Shown: piece by piece, positions 1 to 31,077 of the stretch
Layout: each line of letters starts with the position of its first letter
How positions within the stretch are numbered: the first letter of the stretch is position 1
Assembly: GCA_000004985.1 (NCBI GenBank)
Contig: GG738850.1
Reading direction: 5' to 3' (one strand)
Source: Naegleria gruberi
Lineage: Eukaryota
Length of the DNA: 64,000 bases
Position numbers and translations under genes: made by a program
The notes under the pieces: model-generated
What the model saw: the letters and a program-made list of their open reading frames with translations, nothing else
Told to the model about the DNA's origin: nothing
The model's database searches: none

Positions 1-489
1 GTTGAGAGATTATTCTCTTGGATTCTGATAATTGGATACAGGAGGTTAACAAGGTGATTAAGAGGAGAATGGAAAAAAGTATGCTTGTTGTTAAGGATTT
101 CATTTTTTTATGTATTGTTTCTTCTGGTTTCTTCTGAATTGCTTTTATTCTGAATCAAGTGAAATGAAATCACTGAGTCAAGGCGGCTCAGTCAATAGTG
201 TGATGCGTGAAGTAAACTATCGAGAGGTCGGTTTTCCTTATAAGGTGGTCATATTCCAGCCAACTTCCTGGAAGTCATTTATTCAAAAGCAATTACATCT
301 GACGCAACAAGATTGAGTTTTATTAAAACATGGAAAGTTCAGAGTAATTAATTTAATTTATGTTTTACAATTGTTTTCTTTCAATATTTATTTACAAACT
401 CTCATTATTCGAATGATTCTTCATCAATTTACTCGAAAATGTTTCACGACTCGATACTTGGAAGGATAATGTCTTCTCTCCTTCCCTGA

Positions 490-1434
490 CTATAGTTCAT
501 TTGAGAAAACATATGGCACACCATGCATGATGGTTGGCACTTGTTCCATTTGGCTTGACTGTTGTTGGTGAGGTGTTTGAAAATAGTGGAATGTCGGTGT
601 ATCAGTGAGTCCAAAGATTTCTTCCATAGAGAGTGGAGTCTCAACAGTTGTTGTGGTGGTAGTTGCAGGTGAGCTCGACACGCTTTCAACATGAAAATGT
701 GCAACTGGTGTGTTCATTATAATTGGAGAGTCATTGCTATTCGAATCTTTCATCATTTCAATGAGGAGAGAAAGTTTTTCTTCCAATTCATTCTTCAATC
801 TCATCTGCTTCTCTAATGTTTGTTCGAATTCAAGCTTTATCTGCTTGACTTGCTCAAAGAGATCATCAGAGTTACTTGATGATTCAAGAGAATGTTTGGT
901 TCCACTCTTTGGTTTACATATTTCATCTCTTGTTGCACTTTGGAATGAGTTACTCTCTACCCAACACAAAATTGTGCCATCTTCCTTTTCCACTTTTCTG
1001 CTTCTGTACTTGTTAAACTTTCTTGTGAAATTCAAGGTGTCTAACACAAGATATTTGGTCGAGACAAGTACTCCTAGTCTAAAGTTTGGTTTGGTTGGTT
1101 TCTTCTCGTTTCTCTCAATCTTTCCCAATTGCTCTTCAACATGATAGGAGTATTCTCCACTCTTAACTTTGATTTGCTTGTGTTTCAGCAAGCAAAACAC
1201 TTCAGAGCCGCAATTCAAGTAGAATTGCAAATAGAGATTTTGTTTCTTCTCATTGATTGCTTCATCAACCAAGTATTGACGTAAGTTGACTATTATTGGG
1301 GAAGGAAGCTTTCTTACTCCCTCCTTGATCATGGATTCACTCCTGCCTGCCATTGAACCAATGATATACTTGTAGTTTGATTCAATAGCTTGCTTGAAAC
1401 TAATGCTAATATTATTACTTTCGAATAATTGCAT
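490..1434 (-). CDS. hypothetical protein, 314 aa, central coiled-coil (…QVKQIKLEFEQTLEKQMRLKNELEEKLSLL…) and Thr-rich C-terminus; single exon
   Basis: Uninterrupted ORF starting at a true ATG (1434–1432), with an in-frame TAA 45 nt upstream. Codon usage matches the other genes in the window. I recognised no confident domain. Confidence 0.5.
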   Translation of the reverse strand: MQLFESNNISISFKQAIESNYKYIIGSMAGRSESMIKEGVRKLPSPIIVNLRQYLVDEAINEKKQNLYLQFYLNCGSEVFCLLKHKQIKVKSGEYSYHVEEQLGKIERNEKKPTKPNFRLGVLVSTKYLVLDTLNFTRKFNKYRSRKVEKEDGTILCWVESNSFQSATRDEICKPKSGTKHSLESSSNSDDLFEQVKQIKLEFEQTLEKQMRLKNELEEKLSLLIEMMKDSNSNDSPIIMNTPVAHFHVESVSSSPATTTTTTVETPLSMEEIFGLTDTPTFHYFQTPHQQQSSQMEQVPTIMHGVPYVFSNEL

Positions 1435-2775
1435 CTCCTTTGATTTCTCTCTGTTGTTCTTGCTGTTTTTTTCTAATTAGAAATATTTCATCGGCTAGCT
1501 CTGGGAGCTCTATTATTATATTAAATCAAATAGTAAACAACATTAGATTAGAAGCTACCTAGAGCCAAATGGATAATGAATGGAAAACAAGTGTTATCAC
1601 AGAATCTTCGTTTTGTTATGGCCAAGTACATTGCAACTTCGCCTCTTTTTCTCTTGGCAAAGCTCTCTCCACAGTCAACTGTCATTACTATTTTTGTGTT
1701 CATTGGGAGCAGAACATGTAATTAACAAGAACTTAAAGTACTAAACACGTATTAAAACCATGTTGTTCTGTCCCTGAAAACATGTCCAGAAACCAAGAAG
1801 AGGAAGGGAGTTGGAAGATAGTACTCGGAAAGACCAATTCTTTCATATTTTGATAGAAAATCTACAGTTTTTCAATGATTATTGCTAGCTTATTAAATAT
1901 TCACCTTCTGATTCTTCTTTGTGTATTACATATCGCTTAATCCATCAACCTAAAAGCCTTCTTCTCAATCCTCTCAATTCTTCTTCTACAAACCTCATCA
2001 CGATTATTTTAATATTTTTTTTTTAATAAAAAATAAAAACCACAATTTACGAGGCGCCACTTTTTGCTCTCCAATTCGAGAGGTAATATCATATATTAGA
2101 TCTTATCCATTGTGAAGGCCCATGCAAACTGCAATGTTATTATTGTTCCTAACATTGTGGCTCAATCGAGTTCTTCTTTAGTAATTCCCTCATCCTTATA
2201 ATCTTGTATCTGGCGGCTCGATCCTCTGCTACACTTGAATCGCTTCGAAACAGGTTATACATCTTACGTTTTTTTATGTTGAAGGTTGGGGCAGGAACAA
2301 AACGTGTTAACTTTGCAAGAAATATCAAACACGTTGTGTGATTAACCAGCCGTTACACAACAGAATTTGATTTAAAATTATTTTTATAATTTTTCAAAAT
2401 TAATTAATTTAAAAAAACAAAGCAATATTGGATAATGTCATCATGAAAAGATTAAATATTTAACAGGTAGTCATGCACTCCTTCACAACAACCACCAAGA
2501 TAAAGGATGATACATTGATGAGCCTGACAATTTACTGCACATGATTGTGAATCTCCATTTTGATGGTTTTATTCTTTCTACCATAGCTGAAGATTAGCAC
2601 CTCCTCTTTTATTGGCAGGACCACGAGCACCTCTCTTGTAACCTCTACCATCTTCTGGTATAGACCATGGCGATGTCATCTGACAATTCAGCAAATATTC
2701 CTCCAACAACAATTTGTTTGATAGCGGTTCAAGAAGGTAGATGCACAAGAATAAACTATGAAACATGATTTTTGT

Positions 2776-4930
2776 TTAATGCTCTTTACAGCAGGCATGT
2801 TTGTGGATTATCCAATCTGCCTTTTGACATTCTGTACTGCAATATCTTACATTTTCACACCTGGAACAAATCTTTGTTCCCTTCTTTCTGCAATTTTGAC
2901 AATTGCTGTCAGGGATAAGATCATTATCATTTCTAACAATGGCATCATCCGTTTTCAACTGGTAACTGCACAAATCTTCAGTAAAACCTCCAGACAAGAG
3001 CTGCTTCATTGTGATGGTATGGAATGTAAAGTCAAAGTATGGAGTGGATTGCTGAGAGCACCAATTAATATATGTCTTTAAAGTTTGGACTGTTGCTGAA
3101 TTATTGAGAATTTCAGTATTGGCATACAGAATTGCTTCAATAAATGTGGTAATAGATTGAATTCCATGCCTGTAATACTTCATAATTCCTTTCAAAATAT
3201 TGATGAAGAGTGATATTCCTATTGGACTCCTCTTGAGTACAAGCTTGAATGAAACACCATCAAAGTCATGGAAATATCTCACAACTGATGAGCAATAAAC
3301 AAAAAAGCTCGCCTCTTGTTCTGAATGTTCTTTAGAACTAGAACTCAAATAAAACATGATATCTGTTATGAGCTCGGTAACTTCCTTGCAATATTCCCTA
3401 GTTAAGAATTGGTGGAAACTCTTGTAACAATAACCTCTCAATAAACATTCCATGGCCTTTTGGAGTACATTGATATTTTCCTTTCTGTAATTTTTCAAGA
3501 GTGGTAAAACTTTAGATTGGTAGTGATTGTCCAATTCCATTTGTAATCTGAATGCTCCAGTTTTGTTAATGGTCGAATATGAAACAATTGCAAGTGCATA
3601 CTCTTTAAACTTGGTATATGAAAGAGTTGGATCCATATAAAGTACAGCAGCTCTGATAATTCCATGTCTATATAAATTATGGTGATGAAAAGAAAAGTAC
3701 ATTAATGCTACAATACAGTACAGAGCTGACGGGCATTCTCTTGTTTCAATATTTGCAGCATATCCTTCCAACATTTTCACCAAGTGTGGTATGATAATTT
3801 GCAATTTCTATTAATTAATTCATTATTGGTATAATTGATTATTAGTTCATATGAATTAATTAAATACTTACCACTGTGATGGCATTCAGAAATTGAGCAT
3901 CCTTTTCGATCAAAGGTGTCATCAAATCTGTTAAATTTCTAATAGCAAATTCCTTCATTGTCATGTCAACATCTTTGTTGATGAAAATGTAAGCAAACAT
4001 GTTAAAGAATGGACCAAACTTGTAATTTGGTAAGGTAACAATCTTATCCATATTTCTCATTGATGAAAGAATTGCAAAGATGGCATACAGTCTCATTGAA
4101 AAACTTTTAGATTCCAATAGAGCATAATCTAATATATTGTTTGGAATATTAAGACCCTTAACTGATTCTCCAATATTTCTACAGCCATAAATAGAATTTC
4201 CAAGTAATCTCAATAATTCAGTAACATTATCATCAGATACACTCTCATACAATGCCAAACAGTCCAAAATAATTTTGGTTGGGTGATAATTGTCTCTAAT
4301 CTTTGCAAAAAGATCATTTTCTGCATAAATATTATTCAATATTCTGCATTCTTCCTTGATAGAAACTTCCTTATCGGTACCTGTCAACTTATTCTTGATA
4401 GTATTGAGTAATGCAGTACTATTCTCAACCACTTGTCCTGCTGAATACTTTTTCCATTCCTTCACAAGTGGTTCATCAAATTCTCTTAATCTAGAATCTC
4501 TAGGAGATTCATTTCTAATACCGTCATCCTTCATCTTTCTCTGAGATAGAGCCATCATGCACTGCACCAATAATTCTTGTAATTTTGTCCTTCCTTCTTC
4601 GGAATCAAATTGACAAACTTCCAAAGCAGTCCTACATGTATTTTCCATTTCACTCAATCGATCGTGTTGCAAATGAGCCAAAGCCAATCTCAAATACCCC
4701 TTCCACCATTTTGGTTTTAATTTGGTACACATTTGAGCGTCATCAATTGCTTCCAACTCTCTTCCCAAGCACAAATTAGTAGCCGATCGATTTGAATAAT
4801 ATTCACCCTTCTTCGGATCAGCTGAAATTGCATTAGAATAGTGTAAGAGTGCTTGATCGTAATTTTGTGAGCGGAAGGCCTTGTTGCCCAACTCTTTTTC
4901 TGCCTCTGCTGTTTCCTTATCTCGTACCAT
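2776..4930 (-). CDS. TPR-repeat plus C-terminal MYND zinc-finger protein (about 696 aa); exon 1 3872..4930, 64-nt intron 3808..3871 (GTAAGT…TAG), exon 2 2776..3807
   Basis: N-terminus MVRDKETAEAEKELGNKAF…YSNRS… is a classic Hop/STI1-type TPR. C-terminus CQNCRKKGTKICSRCENVRYCSTECQKADWIIHKHAC is a MYND Cys/His pattern. The true ATG is at 4930; the track start at 4939 is GTG. The splice keeps phase 0 and removes the in-frame stop. Confidence 0.7.
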
Positions 4931-16678: not shown

Positions 16679-19600
16679 TTAAACACTATAACTTAACATT
16701 TCCACTTGAGCGTTAGGATCCCCAACTACTGGAACCTCATAGACAGGACCCTTTCTTCTCTTACAACAATCCCACTTCAATTTTAATAAGACAACAATAA
16801 AAACAAAGACTGTACATAATAAACAAGTGAAACCAAGAATTGTTCCAAGAATTATACCCAAATATCGATCTTCTGCTATTGGTGTGGAAACCTTTACAAC
16901 CTTTTCAAGAATATTTTCAATAATCATAGTGCTTGTTGTAGAGTTGCATTTACAAGTTGCGGTAGAGTTGGAGCTCACCACAACAACACAGGATGGATCA
17001 ACTCCAACAGTGAAATTCTTAAATGTTCTACATAATAATTCTGAAGATCTATACACTTTTGTAATTACATTTTTGTTTGATTGAGTGGATTTAGTTGTGG
17101 AAATCAAAGAGTTGCTTGGATAATTCTTGACGTTAGATATTGTCATATTATAAGTGATTGGAGTCAATACATCTGCAGTGGATTCCAATAATTCAAAGAA
17201 TAAGACATTGCTTCTAAGAAACATGGTAGAAGATATTGATGTTTCAATCTTAGATGTGTTCACAGTGATGGTGCTATCACTTAACACCACCTTAGCGGCA
17301 ACAGTGTCAGAAATACCAAATATATCGTTGGAGGAAATTGAAATAAAGGAAATAGACTTTCTGTTAGATTTTTCGCTCAAGTAGAGAGGCATTTCTGGAG
17401 GCAACAAAACAACAGCACCTTCAAGTGGTGATGTTAATCTTGATTCAAAACCTGCTCTAAAGAGCTTGTTGGATGAAATTGAAGCAAAGACTGTCTTCAA
17501 TTGTAAATCTCTTTCACCAATGTAAATACCTCTCAACATTAAATTAGAAACACGTTTCAGCATTGTGTAGAGAGAACTGAGTTGGTCTGATGCTTGTAAC
17601 TGATTGTATGTAATATAATTGTAGATAGAATTCAAGATATTGGTCAATAACTTGTCAACTCCAAAAGGAACTCTAAGCTCCTTATTATATTCGCAGAATT
17701 TAAGTAAGGTGTTAACAATATCATAGGCCTTTTCCATACTATGTCCATCCAATTCATCATACTTTTCAATCAATGAATCCAAACCGTATGCTTGAAGAGT
17801 CAAGTAGGTTTCTGTAATAATTTCATATGGATTTCTAGCGTCGAATGTTTGAATAAATTCATCCATCAAGGCAACTCTGATTTCCTTATAGGCAGCAAAA
17901 TCTTCCTCTGTAACACTGCAATCTGCCTTTTCAAATCCAGATGCACATGAACATCTATTGGTTTCAGTAATAAGAGTTCCTCCATTTTGACAAACGAGCT
18001 TCACATCTCTTCTTCTTGCACCACTGGTAATCTTTGTTAGCATACCATCAGCGACTCTTGAAATTGTTGCAGAGTTGAAAACCATCTTGGCTGTATCACC
18101 ATCTTTGAGTGAATTTTGAATTGTACTGTAAGAGGCAACCTTCTTTTTAACTTCCACGACACTCTTTACAGCTGCAAGATCAATGGTAATGTCCTTTTTG
18201 ATTTCAGTGTAGGCACCAGTGGATTTATCTGTTATTCTAATGTATGTGGTGACGATCTTGTTAGAAAGTGGTGTGTATGAACATGGCAGCTTGGTTGAAT
18301 AGACTTCTCCGTTTTGATAAAGTGGAATATTAGCACCTGATTTGTCATCAATAAAACCATAGACCACTTGAAGGGTCTTTTGAGCGTTTTGACAATTGGT
18401 ACATGCGAATGAGAAACTAGTTTCTAAGGCAATACCTGATGAAGGAGAAACAGTGCATGGACAAGCTTGAGGTGGAGCAGCAATTTGGAAAGAGTATGAA
18501 TAGACAGCACTCAATCCATTTCTAATATCAGTTACCTTCAAGGACAAGACATAGGTAGCTCCATCTTCCAACGTTGCAGGATCAATAACAACAGAGTTGG
18601 ATAGTGTTGGGCTGGAAGTCATTTTAGAGATAACTGCTTCACCATTTGAAAGTATCTTTGAATTCAAAGTCCATTCTCTGCTAATATACTGATCAATTCC
18701 AACAGATTCTCCATTGGCAGTGACTGCAAGTTGCAAGTTAACAATATCTTGTTTCAAAATGACAGTCTTAGTTGGGACAACTGAAATAAGTGTAACGGTT
18801 GGAGGAACTTTCTTACTTTCAGGGAAAACAAAATCAAGAGTAGTTTGAACTGATCTTATTCCCTTAACAACCGAGAGGGTTAATTTAAGAGTTGGCATCG
18901 AGTTGTAAACTTTGAGGTCAGCTGAGGAAATTAAAGGTCTAACAGTTCTATCATTTGAATACGAGATAAGGGCAGAATCAATAGTTGTTCCACACCCAAC
19001 ATTATTAGTTGCATCGAAGCAAGACCATGTCCATGTTTCAGCCTCAGATGTGACATCAGGATCAACAAGATTGACAACAATAGTACCCATATCGGAAGAT
19101 ACTTCATCACTATATAAAATTAAGCTCAAAGGGCTTGGTCTAACAGTAATCTTAATGGTGTCGGATGCAGTCGAAAGAGGATTCACCACTGAAGTTACAG
19201 TGATTTTGAATTCATAGACGGCTTCAACCAGACCAGAAAAGTGGGTGACTGCCAAGTTGTTAAACTTGTCTGTTTCAAAAGTTGTAACTGGACCTGATAA
19301 TTGTTCCCAGACAATGTTTAATTGTTGGTTTGGATAGAAGCAACTTGGAAGCTCCAAATGCTTCTTAATGACAACAGGAGATTCATACTTGATAATAGTT
19401 CTGTCATTGAAACCAATAATGTATAGCACTGGAAGTGGAACGGCTGCCTTTGAAACACTCCAAATACTCATAGTACTGACCTTTCCAGATATTGAGCTTT
19501 CTACTTGAAGACCGAACTTGTACTCACCAGGATATTGCATTGCAATGTAATCAAGAGACAAAACTGAGGTGTTAGGCATAGAGACAGAAAGGAAATTACT

Positions 19601-22600
19601 TGGAGAAGAAACAATTGTCCAATAATATTTCAATGGCTTTCTATCTCCAGAATAAGAAGCAGAGGCATCCAGACTAAAGTTATCGCAAGTACCAATATTA
19701 TTCAGACCAGAAAAGACGACAACTGGTATTGCTGGATTATCGGCATTCAAAACATATACATCTTGTAAATCAGTACCACTGGCATCAAATACCAGTCTAT
19801 TCATTCCAACAACTGCTCCTGGCATTAAGGAATAATCATCTCCAAAGAGAATTGTAAATTCACCACTACCTCTATTTGTCCACATGCATACAGGACCAGT
19901 ACCAAACAAGGATAATTGGGAGCTTGAAATTAATCTTGAACAATCAACTTTTGATTGAGTATAAGAAGCAGGACCAATAACTTTGAAAACAATGCCATTA
20001 AACATGTCCAAGAATTTGGCAGGACCGAATATTTGAGTTGAACATTGTGAACCATAATAACCAGTTTGACACTTGTTACAATTGGATCCTTCCCAATACC
20101 CTTCAGTTGGACTAGCATAACAAGAGCATGTTCCATTATTGGTACAATCTCCATGGTTAGAACATGTTGTTGATTTTTCACAAAATGTTCCACAATCAGA
20201 ATTAGGATTGTAATAGTTGGTCTTGCAAACGGAACAGAACTTTCCGTCCCAATTACCATTGCAAACACATTGGAGAGCTGAATTACAATAGCCATGTTGG
20301 TTACAAGTAGTAGCAGGATCACACTTGAGCTTCTTACATCCTGTTAATTCAGTTTCATAGTCAAGTCTACAAACATCACAATAGGTTCCTTGCCAATAAC
20401 CATCTTGATTATTTTGATTGCAAGAACATGTGTTGTAATCTGTACAATTACCCTGTCCACTGCAGACACCAGATTGATCGAACCTAATATTATTACAAGT
20501 GTAATATTGACAATAATCACCAGAGTATCCTGTACTGCATTGGCATCCAGTGGAACTACAAATACCCTTTCCATTACATACTCTTGAGTCTGTTGAAACA
20601 ACAAATGTATTCTCCTTACTCAAACATTGAAGATATTGACATTGATTTCCAGTGACTTTAGAAAGAGCAGTTGGAGCTGGGCAATTACATACATTAGGTG
20701 ATGAACAGACACCTTTTCCACTACAAACATTGGAATCATTTGCAGGCTTTCCAAAACAAACTGGAATTTCACATGTGGCTCCAATGTATCCATTATTGCA
20801 AGAGCAAGTATTTGGAGCTGTGCAGGTTCCATTTGAGCTTGAACAAACTTTTGAATTATTAGCTAAAATTCCAAAACAGATTGGAATATCACAAGTAAAG
20901 CCAGTATATCCTGAAATGCATTGGCAAGAATCTGGAGCTGAACAAATCCCTTTTCCTGAACAAACTGAACTTGAATTTGACAGAATGTCATAACATTTTT
21001 TGTGTTCACAGGCCTCTCCTGCATAACCTTGTTTGCAGGTGCAATTGTTTTGACCTACACAATAGCCATTACCTGAACAAGCTTGAGGGTTCAAGCTTGC
21101 GATTCCGTAGCAAGTAAAAGTACCTGGAATGATAAACTCACAATTATCTCCATAAAATCCTGCGAGACAACTGCAATTATTGACAGATACACATGCACCT
21201 CTGGATGAGCAAACAGAAGAAGAATTGAACATGGTTCCATTGCAGGTATGATGTTGGCAGTCATTACCAGTGTAGTTCTTGTTGCAAGAACAAACACCAG
21301 ATAGACAAATACCATTAAAGGAACAAACTGATGGATCTTCGGCTGTTTTACCATTGCATTTCACATTTTGGCAATCATTTCCGTATGTTGAGGAATTACA
21401 ATTACAAACTCCTGAAATGCATTGACCTGCATAAGAACAAACAGATGGATCTTCAGCAGTCTTTCCATTACATTTGATAAATTGACAGTCATTACCATAG
21501 TTGGAGGAAGAGCAGGTACAAGCTCCTTGATAACAAGTGCCATTGGAGGAACAAACACTTGGATCGACTGCTGTTTTTCCATTACATTTCATGAGTTGAC
21601 AGTCAGATCCGTAAGTGGTGGCGTTACAGCTACATGTTCCAGAAATACATTGACCTGCATAAGAACAAACAGAGGGATCTTCAGCAGTTTTACCATTACA
21701 TTTGATAAATTGGCAATCATTACCGTAGTTAGTTGAAGAACAGGTACAAACACCTGAGGAGCATGTTCCATTCGATGAACATACTGTTGCGTTTTCTGCT
21801 GTTTTTCCATTACATTTCAAGAATTGACAATCGTTACCATATGTAGTTGAATTACAATTACACACTCCAGAAATACATTGACCAGATGAGGAGCAAACAG
21901 TGGAATCATTAATCATCTTTCCATTGCACTTCAACATTTCACATTGGTTACCATAAACAGTTGAGTTTACACAGGAACAAACGTCCTGAGCAATGCAAGA
22001 ACCCATTCCACTGCAAACACTTTGACTACCGGCAGAAATTCCAAAACATGTAAAGAGACTTCCTGAACAATCATTTCCAAAGAATCCTGTATTGCAAGTG
22101 CAATTATCAGTTGAAATGCAAGAACCATGGCCAGAGCAAACTAGAGTTTCATTGCTCATGACACCACTACATTTCCAAACTTCACAATCAGATCCATAAA
22201 AACCAGAAGAACAATTACAAGTGCCAGTTAATGCATTACAATCACCACGTGAATGACAAACTGAAGAATCATTGGCAAACTTTCCATTACACTTGGAAAA
22301 CTCGCATTCATTACCGTAGAAATCAGATCTGCAAGCACAAGTGTCCAATCTGATGCAATCACCTCTGGAATTACAAACTGAAGAATCATTGGCAAGCTTT
22401 CCAAAGCAAGATGGCTTATCACAGAGAGGACCTGTCCATCCTGGCTCACATTGACACTTATCAGTGCCAACACAAGAGCCATGTACACAACCTGGATTAC
22501 AAGACAAACTACAATTTGCAGTTATGATACCATCTTCACATTGACACAAATTATTGCCAGCACAAATACCATGACCACTGCAATAATTCAAAGCGCTGCA

Positions 22601-23723
22601 ATCAAATTGATCACCAACATAGAGAGACGCAGTTGTAAAAGCAGCATTTTCACAAGCATACTTGTAGGCAAGTTTTCTTCTTGGATGGGAGCAAACATTT
22701 GTTCCCTTTCCACCCATTCCATGATAGGCACCTGTTTGACTTCCACCAATACCAATGTAGGCATCAAGTTTTCCACTCTCAACACAAGAGGCATTTGAAG
22801 AGGTTACAACACCAAATCTCACTTTCAAATAATTACTATTTCCCATGTTGAATCCAATTAATTTGTTGGCACAATATTTGGCAGATGTGTAATCTGGAGC
22901 TAGAGAATAGAAATTTCTAGCAGTTCTCAAAGATCCTGGAACTACTCTGGATTGATAAGTTTCATCAGAGAACGCTTCTAACAATGACTTTTTGTTAACT
23001 GTAAAAACAGCAGTATTGGTCTTGTTAGACTCGACAATGAATCCGTCATGATCCAAAACAAAAGCTGTCTTAACTGTTGTCATTTTCAAAGAGTGAGCAA
23101 CATGTTTAGTAAAAGCCAAAGTCTTCAAATTAGTATATTGATATCCAATACTTCCAACTGTGGCGTTATTGGTCCAATATTGACTAGAATAGGAGAAGGT
23201 TGCATCAGATCCATCCTTCAAATCCAAAGCAAGAGCCCAAGCACCTATATTTTAACACAAAGGAGCCTTGTTAAATATGAAGAAGGAATAATAACATACC
23301 CTTTGATGAAACATCAAACAAGCACTTGGTTTGATAAGTAACCTTATTGTTATTTCCATCCAAAAGGAACAAGTAGAACAAGTTTCCAGAGATACTTGAC
23401 ACTGACTCTCCCTTACTCAAATAATAATCTCTGATGGCACCACAACTTACAGCAGCGGTATCAGCAGAAGATCCATTAGAGACTTTCAATTTGAGTGTAG
23501 TAAAAGAATCAATCATCCACTGACCCAAATTATCGGAAGGAGAAGAAGCAGCAATTATAGAACAGTTAAATAAAACAATTAATGCAATAATGGCCATAAT
23601 CATGGAGGCGCTTAATAAATTGGAGAATGATTTCTTCAACCTATTGAAACCACCATCATCATCACAGCGTTGAACTTTGTTGCTCAAATGAGGACACGTA
23701 AAATGTCCCCTCATTGAATTCAT
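16679..23723 (-). CDS. giant type I membrane protein (about 2329 aa): signal peptide, about 30 tenascin-type EGF-like repeats, about 900-aa extracellular module with a degenerate GPS-like Cys motif, one C-terminal TM helix, short cytoplasmic tail; exon 1 23300..23723, 55-nt intron 23245..23299 (AAGG|GTATGT…ATATAG), exon 2 16679..23244
   Basis: Exon 1 has a hydrophobic signal (MIMAIIALIVLFNCSIIAASS). Exon 2 has dozens of CxxxxxCxCxxGYxGxxC units. Near the C-terminus there is …CRTFKNFTVGVDPSCVVVVSSNSTATCKCNSTTST… and the TM segment LGIILGTILGFTCLLCTVFVFIVVLL, then KLKWDCCKRRKGPVYEV…. The splice is phase 1 on both sides and removes an in-frame stop. Confidence 0.8.
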
Positions 23724-24101
23724 TTTTTTTTACACTTGAATCTTTGCAATTTGCGCGGGAGGAAAGGATGCAAATGTTTTTGGTCTTAATTTCCCAAAGG
23801 AAACATACTTGCTGAATATAAAGCATGGAGACGAAGAAAGATTCTGAAAAAGTTAAGGCTGTCTTGTTTCTTGCTTCGTAATAATCGTTGAAAAAATAAC
23901 AACTTTTTTCCTTAATTATTTTGTGTACAATTAAGAACTGAAGGTGATTAAGGTAAGCTTTACTTTTATAATGGACCCTCCTCATCCCGCCAAAATACTC
24001 TCTAATGAAAAGTCATCATATGCGAGTCTTAATTAAAAAAAATACCTCTGAGAGAGTACACCCACCACAATCAATAATATATTTTCATACCTCGCGAAAT
24101 T
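23724..24101. promoter_or_regulatory. 378-bp shared intergenic region between the two divergently transcribed EGF-repeat genes (putative bidirectional promoter)
   Basis: ATG of the minus-strand gene is at 23723 and ATG of the plus-strand gene is at 24102. The intervening sequence is AT-rich and non-coding. Confidence 0.4.
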
Positions 24102-27100
24102 ATGCAAATATCATCACGGAATGTGTTTGTTGTGGTATTGTTGGTAATTGGTTTATTGTCCAATAATGTTTATTCCTTTAATGCTTCAGTGTGCCCCACT
24201 TTCAATAGCCAAGCGTGTAATGGTGCCGCCTTATTGAATCCGTGTGCTTCTGGTGGTGAAGAAACAAATTATTGTGACTGTTTTGGATTTGGGAGTGGCG
24301 GGTTTTCAGCCTTTTATGGAGGTGTTGCATGTGAAACCTTTCAATGCTATAAAGTAGACATGCATATTGGAATTGGTCTGTACGACCAATATATTTGTTC
24401 AAATAATGGAGATTGCATTGGACCCAATAGTTGTCAGTGTAATCAAGGTTATACTGGTTACAAATGTCAATACTCTATTGCAGATATTTCTTGTTTTAAC
24501 TTACCCGCAAATAGTTCTACTGTCTGTAGTGGAAAAGGAAAGTGTACACATCCGAATGAATGCCTTTGTAATAAGGGATATGAAGGTTTAAATTGTGAAA
24601 AGTTTAGATGTTATGGTCATTTGAACTCGGATTCGAATGCTTGTAGTGGGAAAGGAAAGTGTATAGATTGGAATGTCTGCGATTGTGACAACGGAAATTC
24701 TGGAAAAAATTGTGAACTAGTGTCCACTGTTGGTAGCTCCATTCAAAGAGTATGTTTTGGAATACCTAACACTAACAATTCGGTCTGCAATAACCGTGGT
24801 GTTTGTGTTGGACCTGATTCCTGTGTATGTAATCCAGGATATTTTGGATCTGAATGTGAACATTCCTTCTGTTTTTCTATTCCTCAAAATGACTCATCTG
24901 TTTGTAATGGCAGAGGCTTTTGTAATGAAAAAGATTCATGTAATTGCCTTTCTCAACTCTCAAATGTTCTGATTTCAGGAAGTGAATGTGAATATTTACA
25001 GTGCAAGGGAACTTTTGGCCAATACTATTTCTCTACAGATAGTACCAATGTATGCTCTGGAAATGGAATTTGCACCCTAAACGGTTGTAACTGTACTGAA
25101 GGGTACTCTGGAGAATTTTGTCAAGATTATTTCTGTGGTGGTGTCCCAAATTACAGTCCATCGTCATGCTCTGGACATGGTAACTGTATTGCTCCAGATG
25201 ATTGTTCTTGCTATACTAATTCAACTCATGGTTTTTGGATAGGATCTGATTGCAGTGTTTGTGATTCATCTCACCATGGATCTGACTGTTTGTCCAGTGT
25301 CAACTGTGACAGATATGAAACTTGTAATGGCCAGGGAAATTGCTCTTCAAATCATACATGCCTTTGTGATGATGGATTCGAGGGAGAATTCTGTGATGAA
25401 TGCTCAAATGATAGATATGGTTGGGATTGTAAGCAGTTTTGTTCAAGAATTTCAAGCTGCTATGGTCACGGTGAGTGTTCCAGAGATGGCCAGGTATGTG
25501 AATGTGATTATTCCCAAAGCACTGGTTTTTGGAAAGGAAATAATTGCTCCTCTTGTGCTGATGGTTTTTTTGGAGACGATTGTTTGACAAAGGTTGGATC
25601 AACCTTTGAGTTTAATTCCCTAGGAAATGAGATTTACTTTGATTTGAATGGTCCTTCAACCTATCTTGGTGGTGTTGTTGATTGTTCAACCCTCTTATCC
25701 TCTTCCTCTTACTCATCTATTGGAAGTTCATTAGCTAAATGTATTTTCAAAACTCCTTTAATTCCATCAAGAATTTCTATAGAGCTTGCAAGCACATCAA
25801 CTATTAAGCCAGGCGACTCCTTGGAGGTTAATTTGAAAGTTTTTGATGCACAACATCTACCAAGATCTCTCTCCACACTCTCATGTTCAGCATCTAATAT
25901 ATCTTCTCCTATTGCTGAAATTGTTTACCACAACACCTTAGTGAGATATTCTGAAAATTTGGTTCTTACAGGAAGAAATAGATTAGGTATTCCTCGTGAA
26001 CGCGTATTGTTCTATGAGTGGACTTTAATTTCAAGTACCTCTTCTTTTAATTCTCTTTCTAGTGTTGTGTCGTCAGGATCAGGTCTAGGAAAATCAGTTC
26101 TCAATATTTCTAACACGGATTTACCAGATAACAATGCATTTGCAATTCAACTTAAAGTGAAACACCCAGACTTTAACTTGTGGAGTAATTATGTAATCGT
26201 TAACTTTACAAAAGAAGATCAACCAATAGTTCAATCACCGTACAAAAAATATGAAGTGTATATATATCCTCCTTTAGACCCCTATTATGTGACAGAGTTT
26301 GTTTTTCCAATCACTGTTCCGTATCAAGTTTTGGAAGATGGTGTTCCAGTGGATACTTCTTCATTTACTGCAATTAGTTGGACATTTGATCCAGATATTC
26401 AAGCAAGTGGGCAGAGTATTTTTACAGTGGATACAACAACAAATGGTGTACTTTCTTTTGATGCAACCATTAGTGAAATGGAAAATACTATTGTCACAGT
26501 TAAATGTGACGTTATAGAAAACAATGTTGTATTAACATCCAGTTCTTTCAAAATCAAATCTGTTGCAGAGTATAAACCTTCTCTCAAAACAAATGAGACA
26601 GATTATGGGGTTTTCTTTAATATTGGATCTTTGAAGGGAATGCCATTACAGCAGAGCTATTGGGAATGTCACGCACCAACACAGCACCAGGGAAAATGTG
26701 AACCTGAAATCGAGGCTTTCTTCAAAGATGCAACTAACAAGAAAAGCGTCTTTATTCCTAATGAATATTTATACAAGTACAAAGTACTTTATTATGCTCG
26801 TGTTTCAATGGTTGTTAATGGGGCTCATTATAAGGGACAAGCGGATGCTTTTGGTAAAAAGGGTTTAGAAATCTTAAAGATTGGAAATGAAGATGTAAAG
26901 CATTATGTCTATTTGAGTAGAACGCAACAAACTAACTACATTTTGTACTATGACAACACAAGACAATCAATGACAAGCCCTCCTTCATATTCAATGTTTG
27001 ATGAGCTTGGAAATAACATTACAGATATTCTTGTTTTGGATGCAACAAACAAACGTATTATAATCAATCCTACCGCAATACCATCTCAATCAACTTTATT

Positions 27101-27674
27101 AACCTTGTCCCTTACTGACACTTATGGAAGCATGATTTATAAGAAAAACCTTCATGCATTTGTTGACATGCTCCCTAAATCAAATTGTACTGTTAAAATT
27201 GCTGAACATCCGGTTACAGTTAGTGTTTTTAATGGAATACTCTACTTTTACAATATTACAGTAGCATGTGTAACTTCTTCAAAATTGCCAACAGTTAAAG
27301 TGTATTTGAAGAACCAAAATACCGAACTATTCGTATGTGATTTTGATCCACTATTGCTTCCAAGTCAATCTTGCTACATTCTACTTCCAGAATTGATTGG
27401 ACCAACAGATGTGTTTGCCAATGTTACTCATGCAACCCAGGAATTGGTTGCCCTATTACCTGTTGCAGAAGTAAGTGAATTGATTCCTATTGGAAGTCTA
27501 AGAGAAAGACAAACAACTCCCTCAGCAGATATTGATTCTCTTCAACAAATGTTCTACCAATATTTTGCCAATCCAAGAGATGTTGAAAACACATCTATGT
27601 TACTTCAAACTCAAATCAAAAAACTGCTCTACTTACACTACCCAGAAAAGGAGCTTTCGTATCCAAATCTCTAA
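24102..27674 (+). CDS. secreted paralogue of the neighbouring giant protein (1190 aa): signal peptide, about 12 tenascin-type EGF-like repeats, about 700-aa C-terminal module, no TM
   Basis: MQISSRNVFVVVLLVIGLLSNNVYS is a signal peptide, followed by repeated CxxxxxCxCxxGYxGxxC units. The post-EGF region shares motifs with the minus-strand paralogue (VDCSTLLSSS / VDCSRLISSS; FYEWTLISSTSSFNS / KYYWTIVSSPSNFLS). Confidence 0.8.
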   Translation: MQISSRNVFVVVLLVIGLLSNNVYSFNASVCPTFNSQACNGAALLNPCASGGEETNYCDCFGFGSGGFSAFYGGVACETFQCYKVDMHIGIGLYDQYICSNNGDCIGPNSCQCNQGYTGYKCQYSIADISCFNLPANSSTVCSGKGKCTHPNECLCNKGYEGLNCEKFRCYGHLNSDSNACSGKGKCIDWNVCDCDNGNSGKNCELVSTVGSSIQRVCFGIPNTNNSVCNNRGVCVGPDSCVCNPGYFGSECEHSFCFSIPQNDSSVCNGRGFCNEKDSCNCLSQLSNVLISGSECEYLQCKGTFGQYYFSTDSTNVCSGNGICTLNGCNCTEGYSGEFCQDYFCGGVPNYSPSSCSGHGNCIAPDDCSCYTNSTHGFWIGSDCSVCDSSHHGSDCLSSVNCDRYETCNGQGNCSSNHTCLCDDGFEGEFCDECSNDRYGWDCKQFCSRISSCYGHGECSRDGQVCECDYSQSTGFWKGNNCSSCADGFFGDDCLTKVGSTFEFNSLGNEIYFDLNGPSTYLGGVVDCSTLLSSSSYSSIGSSLAKCIFKTPLIPSRISIELASTSTIKPGDSLEVNLKVFDAQHLPRSLSTLSCSASNISSPIAEIVYHNTLVRYSENLVLTGRNRLGIPRERVLFYEWTLISSTSSFNSLSSVVSSGSGLGKSVLNISNTDLPDNNAFAIQLKVKHPDFNLWSNYVIVNFTKEDQPIVQSPYKKYEVYIYPPLDPYYVTEFVFPITVPYQVLEDGVPVDTSSFTAISWTFDPDIQASGQSIFTVDTTTNGVLSFDATISEMENTIVTVKCDVIENNVVLTSSSFKIKSVAEYKPSLKTNETDYGVFFNIGSLKGMPLQQSYWECHAPTQHQGKCEPEIEAFFKDATNKKSVFIPNEYLYKYKVLYYARVSMVVNGAHYKGQADAFGKKGLEILKIGNEDVKHYVYLSRTQQTNYILYYDNTRQSMTSPPSYSMFDELGNNITDILVLDATNKRIIINPTAIPSQSTLLTLSLTDTYGSMIYKKNLHAFVDMLPKSNCTVKIAEHPVTVSVFNGILYFYNITVACVTSSKLPTVKVYLKNQNTELFVCDFDPLLLPSQSCYILLPELIGPTDVFANVTHATQELVALLPVAEVSELIPIGSLRERQTTPSADIDSLQQMFYQYFANPRDVENTSMLLQTQIKKLLYLHYPEKELSYPNL

Positions 27675-27684
27675 TCATAAAATT

Positions 27685-30600
27685 TTAATTGAATTCATTA
27701 TTGATTTTTCTCTTTCTTGAGAATATTTCTGCATCTCTGGAAACAAATGGAAAAACAGCAAACCAAATCATACACAATAAACAACTAGAAACCAAACACC
27801 ACCCAAGACCTAAACTGAATGCAATCTCATTATTATCACTAACAATACTATCGTCATCATTGAAAGAGAATGGGAATCTGAATATGGTCTCAGTAATCAT
27901 GGTAGAAATCAACATGGCCGAGAGAAGCAGAGGGGCAAAGTATTTGACTAAAAAGCACCAAACCCACAAAACTGTCTGTGTTGCCAAATCAGTGCATTTG
28001 TAAACAAATGTATTCTCAGTGAAAATATTTTCCTCTCCATCTTCATTCTCCTCAGTAGCATACTTTTGAATAATCTTTTGTTTTTTAGCAAGAATGTGGT
28101 TTTTAAATCTCTCAACAGAGAAGAAGGCCGCTCCTTTCCAATATTTCTTTGGGTTGTTTTTCAGTTTTCTGAATGCATGTGTGAGATTAGGGCAGTGAAT
28201 CAAATATTTGAAAAATACCACAAAGTGGGTGGCCATGATTTTACAACGTTTTGTAAATCTTGCACACACAGAGGTGTCTCCCTCCAAAACCATATCAACT
28301 ATTCCCTCCTCTGATGGCTCTATCATTTGAATCATTTCTTCTTGCCATTTTTCATGGTTAGCTGCCAAAGCTTCATTAATCTTGTTAACGATATCCTTCT
28401 CTTCCAATTCACTGCATTGACTTTCAAACATTTTACTTCCAAATGCAAAATATCCAACAACTATACACTCAGCCAATCCCATCAAAACTAGACAATAATT
28501 TGAAATGTAGTGATCCACAATTCTAATCAAGTAGTATCCATTATTAAGAGTGAACGGCAATCCTAAAATGAAGCCAACAAGGCAAACAATAAAAGTTGCC
28601 ACGTTTCTGTTAGTCAACATTTTGTAAGTGAATGGCATGTCTGGTACATTGTCCTCATGAAGCAAATCTTGCTTCTCTGGAGGAAGATTAATAGTCTCCT
28701 TCTTAATAGCCACAGGAGAAGATGAAATCACATTGGATGAATCGATGGTATCCTCCAGTGGTACTTCATGTTGAGCATCAACTGCTTGTTCTGTCATTTC
28801 ATGTTCATTGTGGAAATTCTGCATGTAAATCTTTTGAACATACTTCCAACGTTGAACTTTGAGATTCCACTGCATTGAGAAGTGATCCATCAGGGCACTT
28901 GTTACACATTCCACACAAGCAAAGGCACTATCTAATCCCATTGAAAATATAGTGGCAATCAGTAAGAGAGCAGAAAAGTGAGGAACTGGCAAATAGGAAA
29001 CAGCTTGGAAGTAGACAATAAAAGCCAATCCCAATCCTGAACGAACTGTATCACTAGTAAAGAGCTTGTCAAAATCTGCAAGAGCTGTTTTCAAATAATA
29101 TTATATGAATATTAAGGTAAAAATTAATATTAAAAAAGGTTTGTGAAAAAACTTACCATTCTCACCAAACTTGTCATGAGCCATAACACCCAAAATTGAA
29201 AAGATAGTAAAGCCACTCAAAAAGGCAATAAAGCAATTGGCTGCCACCACAACAACTGAAGCAATGATAATATTTGATTTTCTACTCAAATATGAAGAAT
29301 AGGTAGAGTTGGTTCCATTTCCAACACCAACACTGAAGAATACCTGACCAGCAGCCGCCAACCAAATTTCAGTTTTCAGCAAGACACTGAAATCTGGTTT
29401 GAAAAAGTAGTACAAACCAGAGCTACTTCCCACTTCGAACAATATAGTTCTCAACAAGTAAATGGCCAATAAACAAATTGGCAAAGGTACTGAAATGAAA
29501 ACTACAAATTTGATACTGCTCACACCCTTAAAAACGCACAAAAAGTTGAAAAATACCACAACCAGTAAGCCCAATAAAATTGGCATGGAAACAAAGTCTA
29601 CTCCATAAAAATTCGATGGATAATTGCTTATCAATGTAGTTGGTCCAGTGGATTTTCTCAAAACTACAGAATTGAAGAACTCTTCAGCCTTCCCAATCCA
29701 TGGTAATTCAGCTTGGAATAAGTTTACAAAATAAACACAAGTCCAACTCAGAATTACATTATAATAACTCAAAATTAATAAACTTCCAAAAACTGTCATG
29801 GCCAAACCAACTCCACAAGCTCTTCTATTCCACTTTGAAATGGATAATATGGAAGATCTTCTCGACATGACACCAAGTGAAAATTCCAACAAGGTCAATG
29901 GCAATCCCAAAACAACCAAACAGAAAATGTAAGGAATGAGAAATCCACCACCTCCATACGTATAAACAAGATATGGAAAACGAATCAAATCTCCCAAACC
30001 AACACTCGAACCAATGGCTGCAAATAAAAAGCTAATAACTGATCCAAAATGTTGTCTCTTATCATCTTCCAATCCATTCGATCCATCATCCACAAATTTG
30101 AAACATTTCTCATTGGCAATACTTGCCAAATCCAAAGAACTCGTCTCTGAAACATTATCTGCATAATAATCCATACTAGAAGTGGCAGATAAACTTTCCT
30201 CTTCAGTTGTTGTACCTTCCTCTGATTCGAATGCTTGCTCTTCACTCTCAACTTTTGGACCCAAATCTGAATGTCTATGAATGTGATGAGAAATCTTTGG
30301 CTTGTGATTTGGTTTTCTATGGTGATGTCCATGATGACGATGATGAGAAAGTCCCCTTGTGGCATTAAGTTGTTGTTGCTGATGATGACCACGAAGATTA
30401 TTACGAGAACTTCTTCGAGAGGAATCTCTCTTCACTTCTTCCATCATTCCAGCCTGATGTTCCCTCTCAACATCTTCCATCATGATTGTTTCCTCCAACT
30501 CTTCTGGATGATGATTATGAGTGCCTTGTTGTTCTTCTCCTTCTCCAATCATTCCTCTCTTATCAAAGGCTAGAGATGATAAAGTTGTTGGAGCAGCTCC

Positions 30601-31077
30601 TACTCCGTAATGATGAATGTGTTGGGAGTAGATGGATTTGAGTGCTGAATTATTTACAACTCCAATCCTGTTGCCAATCAATTGGCTATTATCCAAACTT
30701 CTTCTCATATTATTATTGTTAATTATATTTAAATTATTTAAAGTTTTGGAGGGTGGATCCTCTCCACTACTACTACTCATCGATTGTTGTTGTTGTTGAA
30801 TGAGAAGTGTGGATGGAAGTTTGGGCGAAGAGGGTGAATTGTTATTTGTATTAGAAAATTGTTGCTGTTGTGATTGTAAAATTCTGGGTGATGACGATGA
30901 CTGAGAAGAAACTCTCGGAGAAGATGTACCTGAATTATTGTTCATCATTTCCTTCTCAAAATTGCTGTGAAAATCTTCACAATGGTTTGTTTTCAATTTT
31001 TTGGTTGTTGTCCAACAACTGAAAATTTGGTCACAACTCTGAGATGAGAATTGGTTTTGGTTAGTACTTGATTCCAC
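27685..31077 (-). CDS. SLC6/NSS-family sodium:neurotransmitter-type symporter with long His/Gln/Ser-rich N-terminal extension; exon 1 29157..31077 (5' end uncertain, possibly a further upstream exon around 31101..31270), 72-nt intron 29085..29156, exon 2 27685..29084
   Basis: …FGSVISFLFAAIGSSVGLGDLIRFPYLVYTYGGGGFLIPYIFCLVVLGLPLTLLEFSLG… is the TM1 NSS signature. Later …AAAGQVFFSVGVGNGT…FLSGFTIFSILGVMA… and …LGLAFIVYFQAVSYLPV…FSMGLDSAFACVECVTSALMDHF… follow. The GTAAGT/CAG splice is phase 1. The track start at 31077 is GTG. Confidence 0.75.

Follow-up and report, generated by a model that had tools for sequence, protein, structure and literature searches.

A large single-pass EGF–PKD–REJ–GAIN protein and its shortened divergent neighbor in Naegleria gruberi, probable members of a heterolobosean EGF-array family

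Large surface proteins that combine EGF, PKD-type, REJ and GAIN domains in one ectodomain represent an already known type of domain architecture. In polycystin-1 and PKD1-like proteins, PKD-type domains are followed by REJ and by GAIN/GPS directly before the first of 11 transmembrane (TM) segments, with PLAT and channel-like domains present. Sea-urchin REJ1 (suREJ1) has a single C-terminal membrane segment. It has been described as a modular surface glycoprotein in which EGF module(s) are combined with a large REJ module that also occurs in PKD1 (PMC2120838). GAIN domains have been reported in Dictyostelium and Tetrahymena (PMC3321182), and the 7TM-RGS proteins of Naegleria fowleri contain EGF repeats and GPS motifs (PMC9283941). 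Here we analyze two genes that lie head to head at positions 16,679 to 27,674 of a 64,000-nucleotide stretch of Naegleria gruberi DNA (contig GG738850.1; this whole stretch is hereafter the window): gene A on the minus strand (2329 amino acids, aa) and gene B on the plus strand (1190 aa). Protein A is a single-pass EGF–PKD–REJ–GAIN protein, with a layout nearest to that of suREJ1. We consider it likely (probability roughly 0.8) that A and B are adjacent, divergently transcribed members of a large heterolobosean EGF-array family of the polycystin-1/REJ superfamily, placed side by side by ordinary local duplication.

Like suREJ1, A has EGF units, a REJ domain and one C-terminal TM segment; it differs in its 22+1 EGF units, its orphan head, its degenerate GPS and the lack of a lectin domain (no Lectin_C match in Pfam), and the resemblance does not imply metazoan orthology. 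The order of ectodomain elements in A, with GAIN/GPS immediately preceding the membrane, is that of polycystin-1, but there is one TM segment instead of 11, no PLAT or channel-like domain, and Ser-Thr-Thr (S-T-T) in place of the His-Leu-Thr (H-L-T) of the cleavage site. It is the distant relatives of A that approach polycystin-1 in these respects, with a canonical CxCNHLTxF motif and, by prediction, as many as seven or more TM helices. Compared with the GAIN domains of the adhesion G-protein-coupled receptors (GPCRs) BAI3 (4DLO), latrophilin-1 (4DLQ) and CELSR1 (8VY2), A shows ~10% identity, lacks the 7-TM domain, and has replaced the conserved Trp pair and the cleavage-site His-Leu. With the N. 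fowleri 7TM-RGS proteins, A shares the genus and an EGF-rich ectodomain with GPS (PMC9283941), but the N. fowleri proteins span the membrane seven times and have an RGS domain in the cytoplasm, whereas A is single-pass, contains REJ and has a non-canonical GPS.

A first-pass annotation, made from the letters alone, had outlined a head-to-head pair of about 2329 and 1190 aa with starts 378 bp apart, and this outline is borne out by the open reading frames (ORFs) and the spliced coding sequence (CDS):

16679..23723, minus strand: gene A, complete CDS, 2329 aa, exons 23300..23723 and 16679..23244 (ORF list and sequence reading)
23723..23300, minus strand: gene A exon 1, 424 nt
23245..23299, minus strand: gene A intron, 55 nt, GT..AG (GTATGT...ATAG), read from the sequence
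23244..16679, minus strand: gene A exon 2, ~6.5 kb
23724..24101, no strand: divergent intergenic region, 378 bp from start codon to start codon (coordinates of both genes)
24102..27674, plus strand: gene B (P0001), single exon, 1190 aa (ORF)

Splicing fuses two ORFs of gene A in frame, yielding a CDS of 6990 nt with one terminal stop. The product of gene B is 100% identical to an NCBI entry, 'predicted protein [Naegleria gruberi]'. For A, unlike its neighbor, neither of the two large protein collections searched contains an entry that is identical or shares >50% identity. Gene A thus seems to be absent from the public N. gruberi protein set, and given this apparent omission the locus merits re-annotation.

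The elements of protein A, from N- to C-terminus, are:

23541..23618, minus strand: aa 36-61, N-terminal hydrophobic segment, signal peptide or signal anchor (Kyte-Doolittle scan)
22634..23540, minus strand: aa 62-345, orphan N-terminal ectodomain, ~280 aa (coordinates include the intron)
20033..22633, minus strand: aa 346-1212, EGF-like array of 22 six-Cys units (Pfam and Cys count)
21290..21925, minus strand: tandem repeat array within the EGF region, 114-bp units (Tandem Repeats Finder)
19322..20032, minus strand: aa 1213-1449, post-EGF module shared with B (VDCSRLISSS...) and K319L-type PKD domain containing KYYWTIVSSP (BLASTP, hhalign)
18101..19321, minus strand: aa 1450-1856, second K319L-type PKD domain and REJ domain (Pfam)
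17918..17992, minus strand: aa 1893-1917, lone membrane-proximal EGF unit (weak Pfam EGF_2 match, E 0.01)
16880..17917, minus strand: aa 1918-2263, predicted GAIN domain, a helical subdomain followed by a beta-sandwich subdomain
16919..17032, minus strand: aa 2213-2250, degenerate GPS, C-x14-C-x11-CKC-N-S-T-T, with S-T-T for H-L-T (hmmalign)
16781..16861, minus strand: aa 2270-2296, single TM helix (hydrophobicity scan)
16682..16780, minus strand: aa 2297-2329, Cys/basic cytoplasmic tail of 33 aa (KLKWDCCKRRKG...), from the translation; stop codon at 16679..16681

The region of A preceding the membrane is missed by the Pfam GPS and GAIN models, and a direct phmmer search with it against PDB sequences gave no match. 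An exhaustive HMMER search with A aa 1200-2329 against 1.84 billion proteins yielded 329 relatives, 28 of them at E <= 1e-30. Among these relatives is P0026, which is colinear with A over aa 1247-2295 (E 2e-39) and has a Pfam GPS match (E 5e-10). Furthermore, a profile of the closest fetched relatives of A, none of which contains a canonical GPS, matches proteins with a canonical GPS over the full length of the profile (E 1e-15 to 1e-9; against ~155 sequences). In the hmmalign alignment, the segment C-x14-C-x11-CKC-NSTTSTMII of A is in register with the canonical C-xxW-x..W-x-C-x..-CxC-NHLTxF, and the four GPS cysteines are the sole invariant columns across 20 sequences. Both conserved Trp residues are replaced in A and CKC is followed by N-S-T-T, so that the cleavage triad His-Leu-Thr/Ser is absent.

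Also at the sequence level, the mixed 20-sequence profile matched the GAIN domains of adhesion GPCRs in PDB (ADGRL3, E 3.7e-7). Structural comparison points in the same direction. AlphaFold2 modeling of A aa 1918-2263 with the 20-sequence alignment produced five helices followed by ~13 strands, including a complete final beta-strand (predicted local distance difference test score, pLDDT, 85.5; predicted template modeling score, pTM, 0.78), whereas the single-sequence run on the C-terminal region gave no usable model (pLDDT 34). GAIN domains account for all of the ten best Foldseek matches of the aa 1918-2263 model (E 4e-11 to 1e-4). Thus, A combines the two-subdomain fold directly before the membrane, as modeled, with the four-Cys GPS pattern (C...C...CxC), and the Cys motif that the first-pass annotation took for a degenerate GPS-like element is, judging from alignment and model, a genuine, catalytically degenerate GPS inside a GAIN fold. 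Autoproteolysis of latrophilin-1 is abolished by H836S and by L837A (PMC3321182). Protein A carries Ser and Thr at these two positions and keeps Thr at the +1 nucleophile; because Ser-Thr-Thr thus replaces His-Leu-Thr, we predict that A does not self-cleave.

The REJ domain is identified directly, PF02010 matching A aa 1480-1856 with E 5.8e-29 and 101.4 bits against a curated cut-off of 25, so that A qualifies as a REJ-domain protein. A K319L-like_PKD match covers aa 1450-1509 (E 2.4e-9), and the upstream KYYWTIVSSP stretch falls in another K319L-type PKD domain, given that the same Pfam model matches the aligned stretch (aa 551-618) of the paralog P0002. The earlier guess that the post-EGF region is REJ-like was therefore apt for A. 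The same Pfam scan revealed no PLAT, PKD_channel, Lectin_C or IPT/TIG domain in this protein. In relatives, too, an EGF unit occupies the position of the lone unit at aa 1893-1917 (P0026, aa 635-673, matched by EGF_TEN and EGF_Teneurin).

The main EGF array of A contains 132 Cys, i.e., exactly 22 six-Cys units, and is recognized by EGF_2 (E 1.9e-62, 16 stretches), EGF_TEN and EGF_Teneurin; of the strict motif CxxxxxCxCxxGYxGxxC there are 11 copies in A and 5 in B. Tandem Repeats Finder detects period 114 (4.9 copies) and period 228 (2.8 copies, 76% matches) in the repeat array, with each 114-bp unit encoding one 38-aa EGF unit and five or six EGF units involved, a pattern that points to recent amplification within the gene and makes the array a likely source of variation in length. 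A signal peptide leading straight into the EGF array had been predicted for both proteins. This is the case in B but not in A, where a 280-aa non-EGF domain intervenes and where the hydrophobic stretch, preceded by 35 aa of charged sequence, begins only at aa 36 and so could be a signal anchor rather than a cleaved signal peptide. The intervening domain (aa 62-345) has no match in Pfam, in PDB sequences, among ~150 family members or in metagenomes, and is a candidate ligand-binding head at the tip of the protein.

The kinship of A and B is evident from a colinear BLASTP alignment of B aa 98-653 with A aa 819-1363 (35% identity over 565 aa, E 4e-95). When taken alone, the post-EGF stretch, singled out in the first-pass annotation as a paralogous module, aligns with 28% identity over 168 aa (E 9e-11; hhalign probability 96%), so that at the sequence level the paralogy is far above chance, although the similarity is no longer detectable past about B aa 653-700. 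The elements of protein B are:

24102..24176, plus strand: aa 1-25, classical signal peptide (MQISSRNVFVVVLLVIGLLSNNVYS), from sequence and hydrophobicity scan
24177..25592, plus strand: aa 26-497, 11 six-Cys EGF-like units (Pfam and Cys count)
25593..26216, plus strand: aa 498-705, post-EGF module (VDCSTLLSSS ... FYEWTLISS) homologous to A aa 1203-1363 (BLASTP, hhalign, family profile)
26217..27671, plus strand: aa 706-1190, orphan C-terminal region, ~485 residues, with neither a membrane segment nor a hydrophobic C-terminus

The EGF array of B contains 66 Cys, making up its 11 six-Cys units, and is matched by EGF_2 (E 5.7e-19), EGF_TEN and EGF_Teneurin. The post-EGF module scores 99.9 bits against the family profile; the PKD-like stretch within aa 498-705 has no Pfam match, being below detection, and the continuation of the family-profile match to aa 893 adds no score of its own. 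A protein search with the post-EGF part of B returned only B, and the same kind of search with the GAIN alignment returned no protein, the word prefilter having probably been saturated by low-complexity words. For the C-terminal ~485 residues, no relative was found among 5.8 billion proteins, in Pfam or in metagenomes. REJ (PF02010) does not match B even at E up to 10, so that by this test B is not a REJ-domain protein. The possibility that B aa 654-1190 is a divergent REJ domain was also considered and dropped, its score against a 123-sequence post-EGF/REJ profile being no better than those of 200 shuffles. The hydrophobicity scan found nothing hydrophobic in B besides the N-terminal signal peptide, in agreement with the first-pass annotation, which gave A one TM helix with a short tail and B no membrane segment. 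Without REJ, GAIN or a membrane segment, B is most likely secreted. Its truncation is real and not an artifact of the gene model because the stop codon of a convergent SNF-family gene is only 10 bp away and a search of the window in all frames, including for frame-shifted REJ remnants, revealed no other REJ- or GAIN-like coding sequence.

The relatives include at least 19 N. gruberi proteins encoded on many scaffolds, as well as proteins of N. fowleri (annotated as 'PKD/REJ-like domain-containing protein'), N. lovaniensis and Willaertia magna. Consecutive accessions within the N. gruberi set (EFC38199/EFC38200 and EFC41041/EFC41042) suggest further adjacent family members. All inspected members of the A subfamily (P0004-P0024, P0155 and P0018, including all those traced to Naegleria) have one TM helix and lack the GPS His. 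The distant relatives from environmental protists (P0026-P0099) retain CxC-x-H-L/T-T-x-F, with predicted TM helices numbering from 1 to 7 or more. In one of these distant proteins, a RhoGAP domain follows the first TM helices. A separate curiosity is the N. gruberi family member P0049 (EFC47318), which is labeled 'basal body protein NBP family' in NCBI and UniProt; a literature search for this label found no explanatory paper.

The nearest relative of A is not B but P0002 (42% identity), which is encoded on the same scaffold outside the window. That of B is the metagenomic protein P0027 (939 aa, EGF and PKD), from a contig of JGI metagenome 3300002220, where it spans, together with the next gene, positions 28..4812. 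The next gene, on the same strand after a 28-bp gap, encodes a 645-aa REJ protein, which suggests that P0027 represents the N-terminal half of a full-length member; the two are probably one family member divided by an intron or a frameshift. In a crude neighbor-joining tree, (A, P0002) and (B, P0027) group as sister clades.

In N. fowleri, the best homolog of A is colinear with A aa 603-2263, with identities of 43%, 32% and 35%:

VFQX01000003.1, 4297..12864: N. fowleri A-like locus, two annotated genes, NHL+EGF (1788 aa) and REJ (903 aa, P0155)

From their sequences, the two are probably a single gene split by annotation. The N-terminus contains an NHL domain in place of the orphan domain of A, which makes orthology uncertain. 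The flanking genes encode cytochrome b5, cytochrome c1 and guanylate cyclase; no B-like gene lies within 10 kb, and the locus is not syntenic with the window.

Protein A consists of a signal sequence or anchor, a 280-aa orphan head, 22 EGF units in the form of a rod, two K319L-type PKD domains, REJ, a further EGF unit, GAIN, one TM helix and a 33-aa tail. Under the interpretation that we favor, it would most likely function in adhesion or contact sensing without being cleaved. The rod of EGF units would keep the head at a great distance from the membrane, with the REJ-GAIN stalk acting as a structural base and not as an autoproteolytic switch. B is a shortened paralog, consisting of a signal peptide, 11 EGF units, the first post-EGF module and ~485 unrelated residues, that most likely derives from a full-length member by local duplication, after which the C-terminal half was lost or replaced. 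The head-to-head position would then reflect the mode of expansion of the family and not a built-in receptor-ligand circuit.

Several points weigh against this interpretation. The 14-sequence profile of the Naegleria-only A subfamily ranks the same GAIN proteins on top in PDB but only with E 0.01, and the alignment supplied to AlphaFold2 held six relatives with a canonical GPS that may have steered the model toward the GAIN fold. BAI3, with Arg in place of the GPS His, is still cleaved in brain (PMC3321182), so that absence of this His is not strict proof of non-cleavage. Among the N. gruberi proteins retrieved, the closest to B are A and P0002, and A and B may have a common origin and have kept some functional link. 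For gene A, the intron and the true start codon are predictions from sequence, and the functional statements on both proteins are all derived from architecture.

Alternatively, B could be a decaying, functionless truncated duplicate in which the 3' half of a full-length member has drifted beyond recognition. The ~485 C-terminal residues that match nothing, the family REJ profile included, the lack of a detected ortholog, and a nearest relative of the full-length type are all compatible with such decay. Nevertheless, the ORF of 1190 codons is uninterrupted in DNA with ~36% G+C, the signal peptide is intact, the 66 Cys still form exactly 11 six-Cys units, and frame-shifted REJ remnants are found in no frame, so we regard this explanation as unlikely.

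According to the proposal of the first-pass annotation, one bidirectional promoter would drive the transcription of both A and B, which would form a dedicated pair in which secreted B binds or competes with A, as a recognition or matrix system comparable to tgrB1/tgrC1 of Dictyostelium. The 378 bp between the start codons, the EGF and post-EGF modules common to both proteins, and the sister position of B (with P0027) to A and P0002 in the tree are in line with it. However, gaps of 378-785 bp between divergent ORFs are frequent in the window (378, 432, 566, 571, 617 and 785 bp, plus some longer ones, by a rough ORF-based estimate), and accordingly the A-B gap is ordinary for this compact genome; a scan of the intergenic region found only short repeats at chance level and no meaningful palindromes. 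The at least 19 paralogs scattered over many scaffolds, the location of the closest paralog of A elsewhere on the scaffold, the N. fowleri homolog with neither a B-like neighbor nor synteny, and the unique half of B, with no ortholog detectable in protein collections or metagenomes, also speak against a dedicated pair. Naegleria is not known to aggregate. Tgr proteins contain IPT/TIG domains, and both partners are membrane-anchored. Neither A nor B has IPT/TIG (Pfam), and B lacks an anchor; the genes encode EGF, PKD, REJ and GAIN domains, are not homologous to tgr, and resemble tgrB1/tgrC1 solely in being adjacent divergent genes for large surface proteins. The analogy with allorecognition genes, attractive as it is, has this layout as its sole positive support; we found it unsupported and removed it, and we consider a dedicated pair improbable.

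Just as improbable, in our estimation, is a broader combination, in which A and B are a lineage-specific co-regulated pair, with secreted B binding or masking the EGF/PKD ectodomain of A, and the GAIN domain is a non-cleaving structural stalk throughout the subfamily. If it were true, secreted B would tune cell-substrate or cell-cell recognition in Naegleria, and the GAIN fold would be used independently of cleavage and of multi-pass receptors across ~20 N. gruberi genes. Finally, that A is an autoproteolytic tethered-agonist mechanosensor in the manner of polycystin-1 or adhesion GPCRs, cleaved at the GPS and signaling when the extracellular fragment is pulled off, is very improbable, for although the modeled GAIN fold has its last beta-strand and the +1 Thr is kept, Ser replaces His (-2) and Thr replaces Leu (-1), substitutions at the positions where H836S and L837A abolish latrophilin-1 cleavage (PMC3321182), and the single TM helix with a 33-aa tail offers no 7-TM or 11-TM bundle as a target for the agonist, nor is there a PLAT or PKD_channel domain in the Pfam scan.

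The favored interpretation, in which A and B are products of family expansion, places a large single-pass EGF–PKD–REJ–GAIN family in a heterolobosean amoeba, far from animals. Our literature search found no paper describing such a single-pass family in Naegleria. The contrast between the A subfamily, which lacks the GPS His, and distant protist relatives with H-L-T is a modest data point on the evolution of the polycystin-1/adhesion-GPCR ectodomain toolkit, and the same family bears on the question of whether GAIN domains have cleavage-independent roles.

The G+C content of the window is ~34%, and the genes that flank the A-B pair are unrelated to it and of housekeeping type. Convergent to gene B is an SNF-family (sodium:neurotransmitter symporter) gene at 27685..31077 on the minus strand, the two stop codons being 10 bp apart; this transporter gene has a GTAAGT..AG intron of ~70 nt near 29092..29163.

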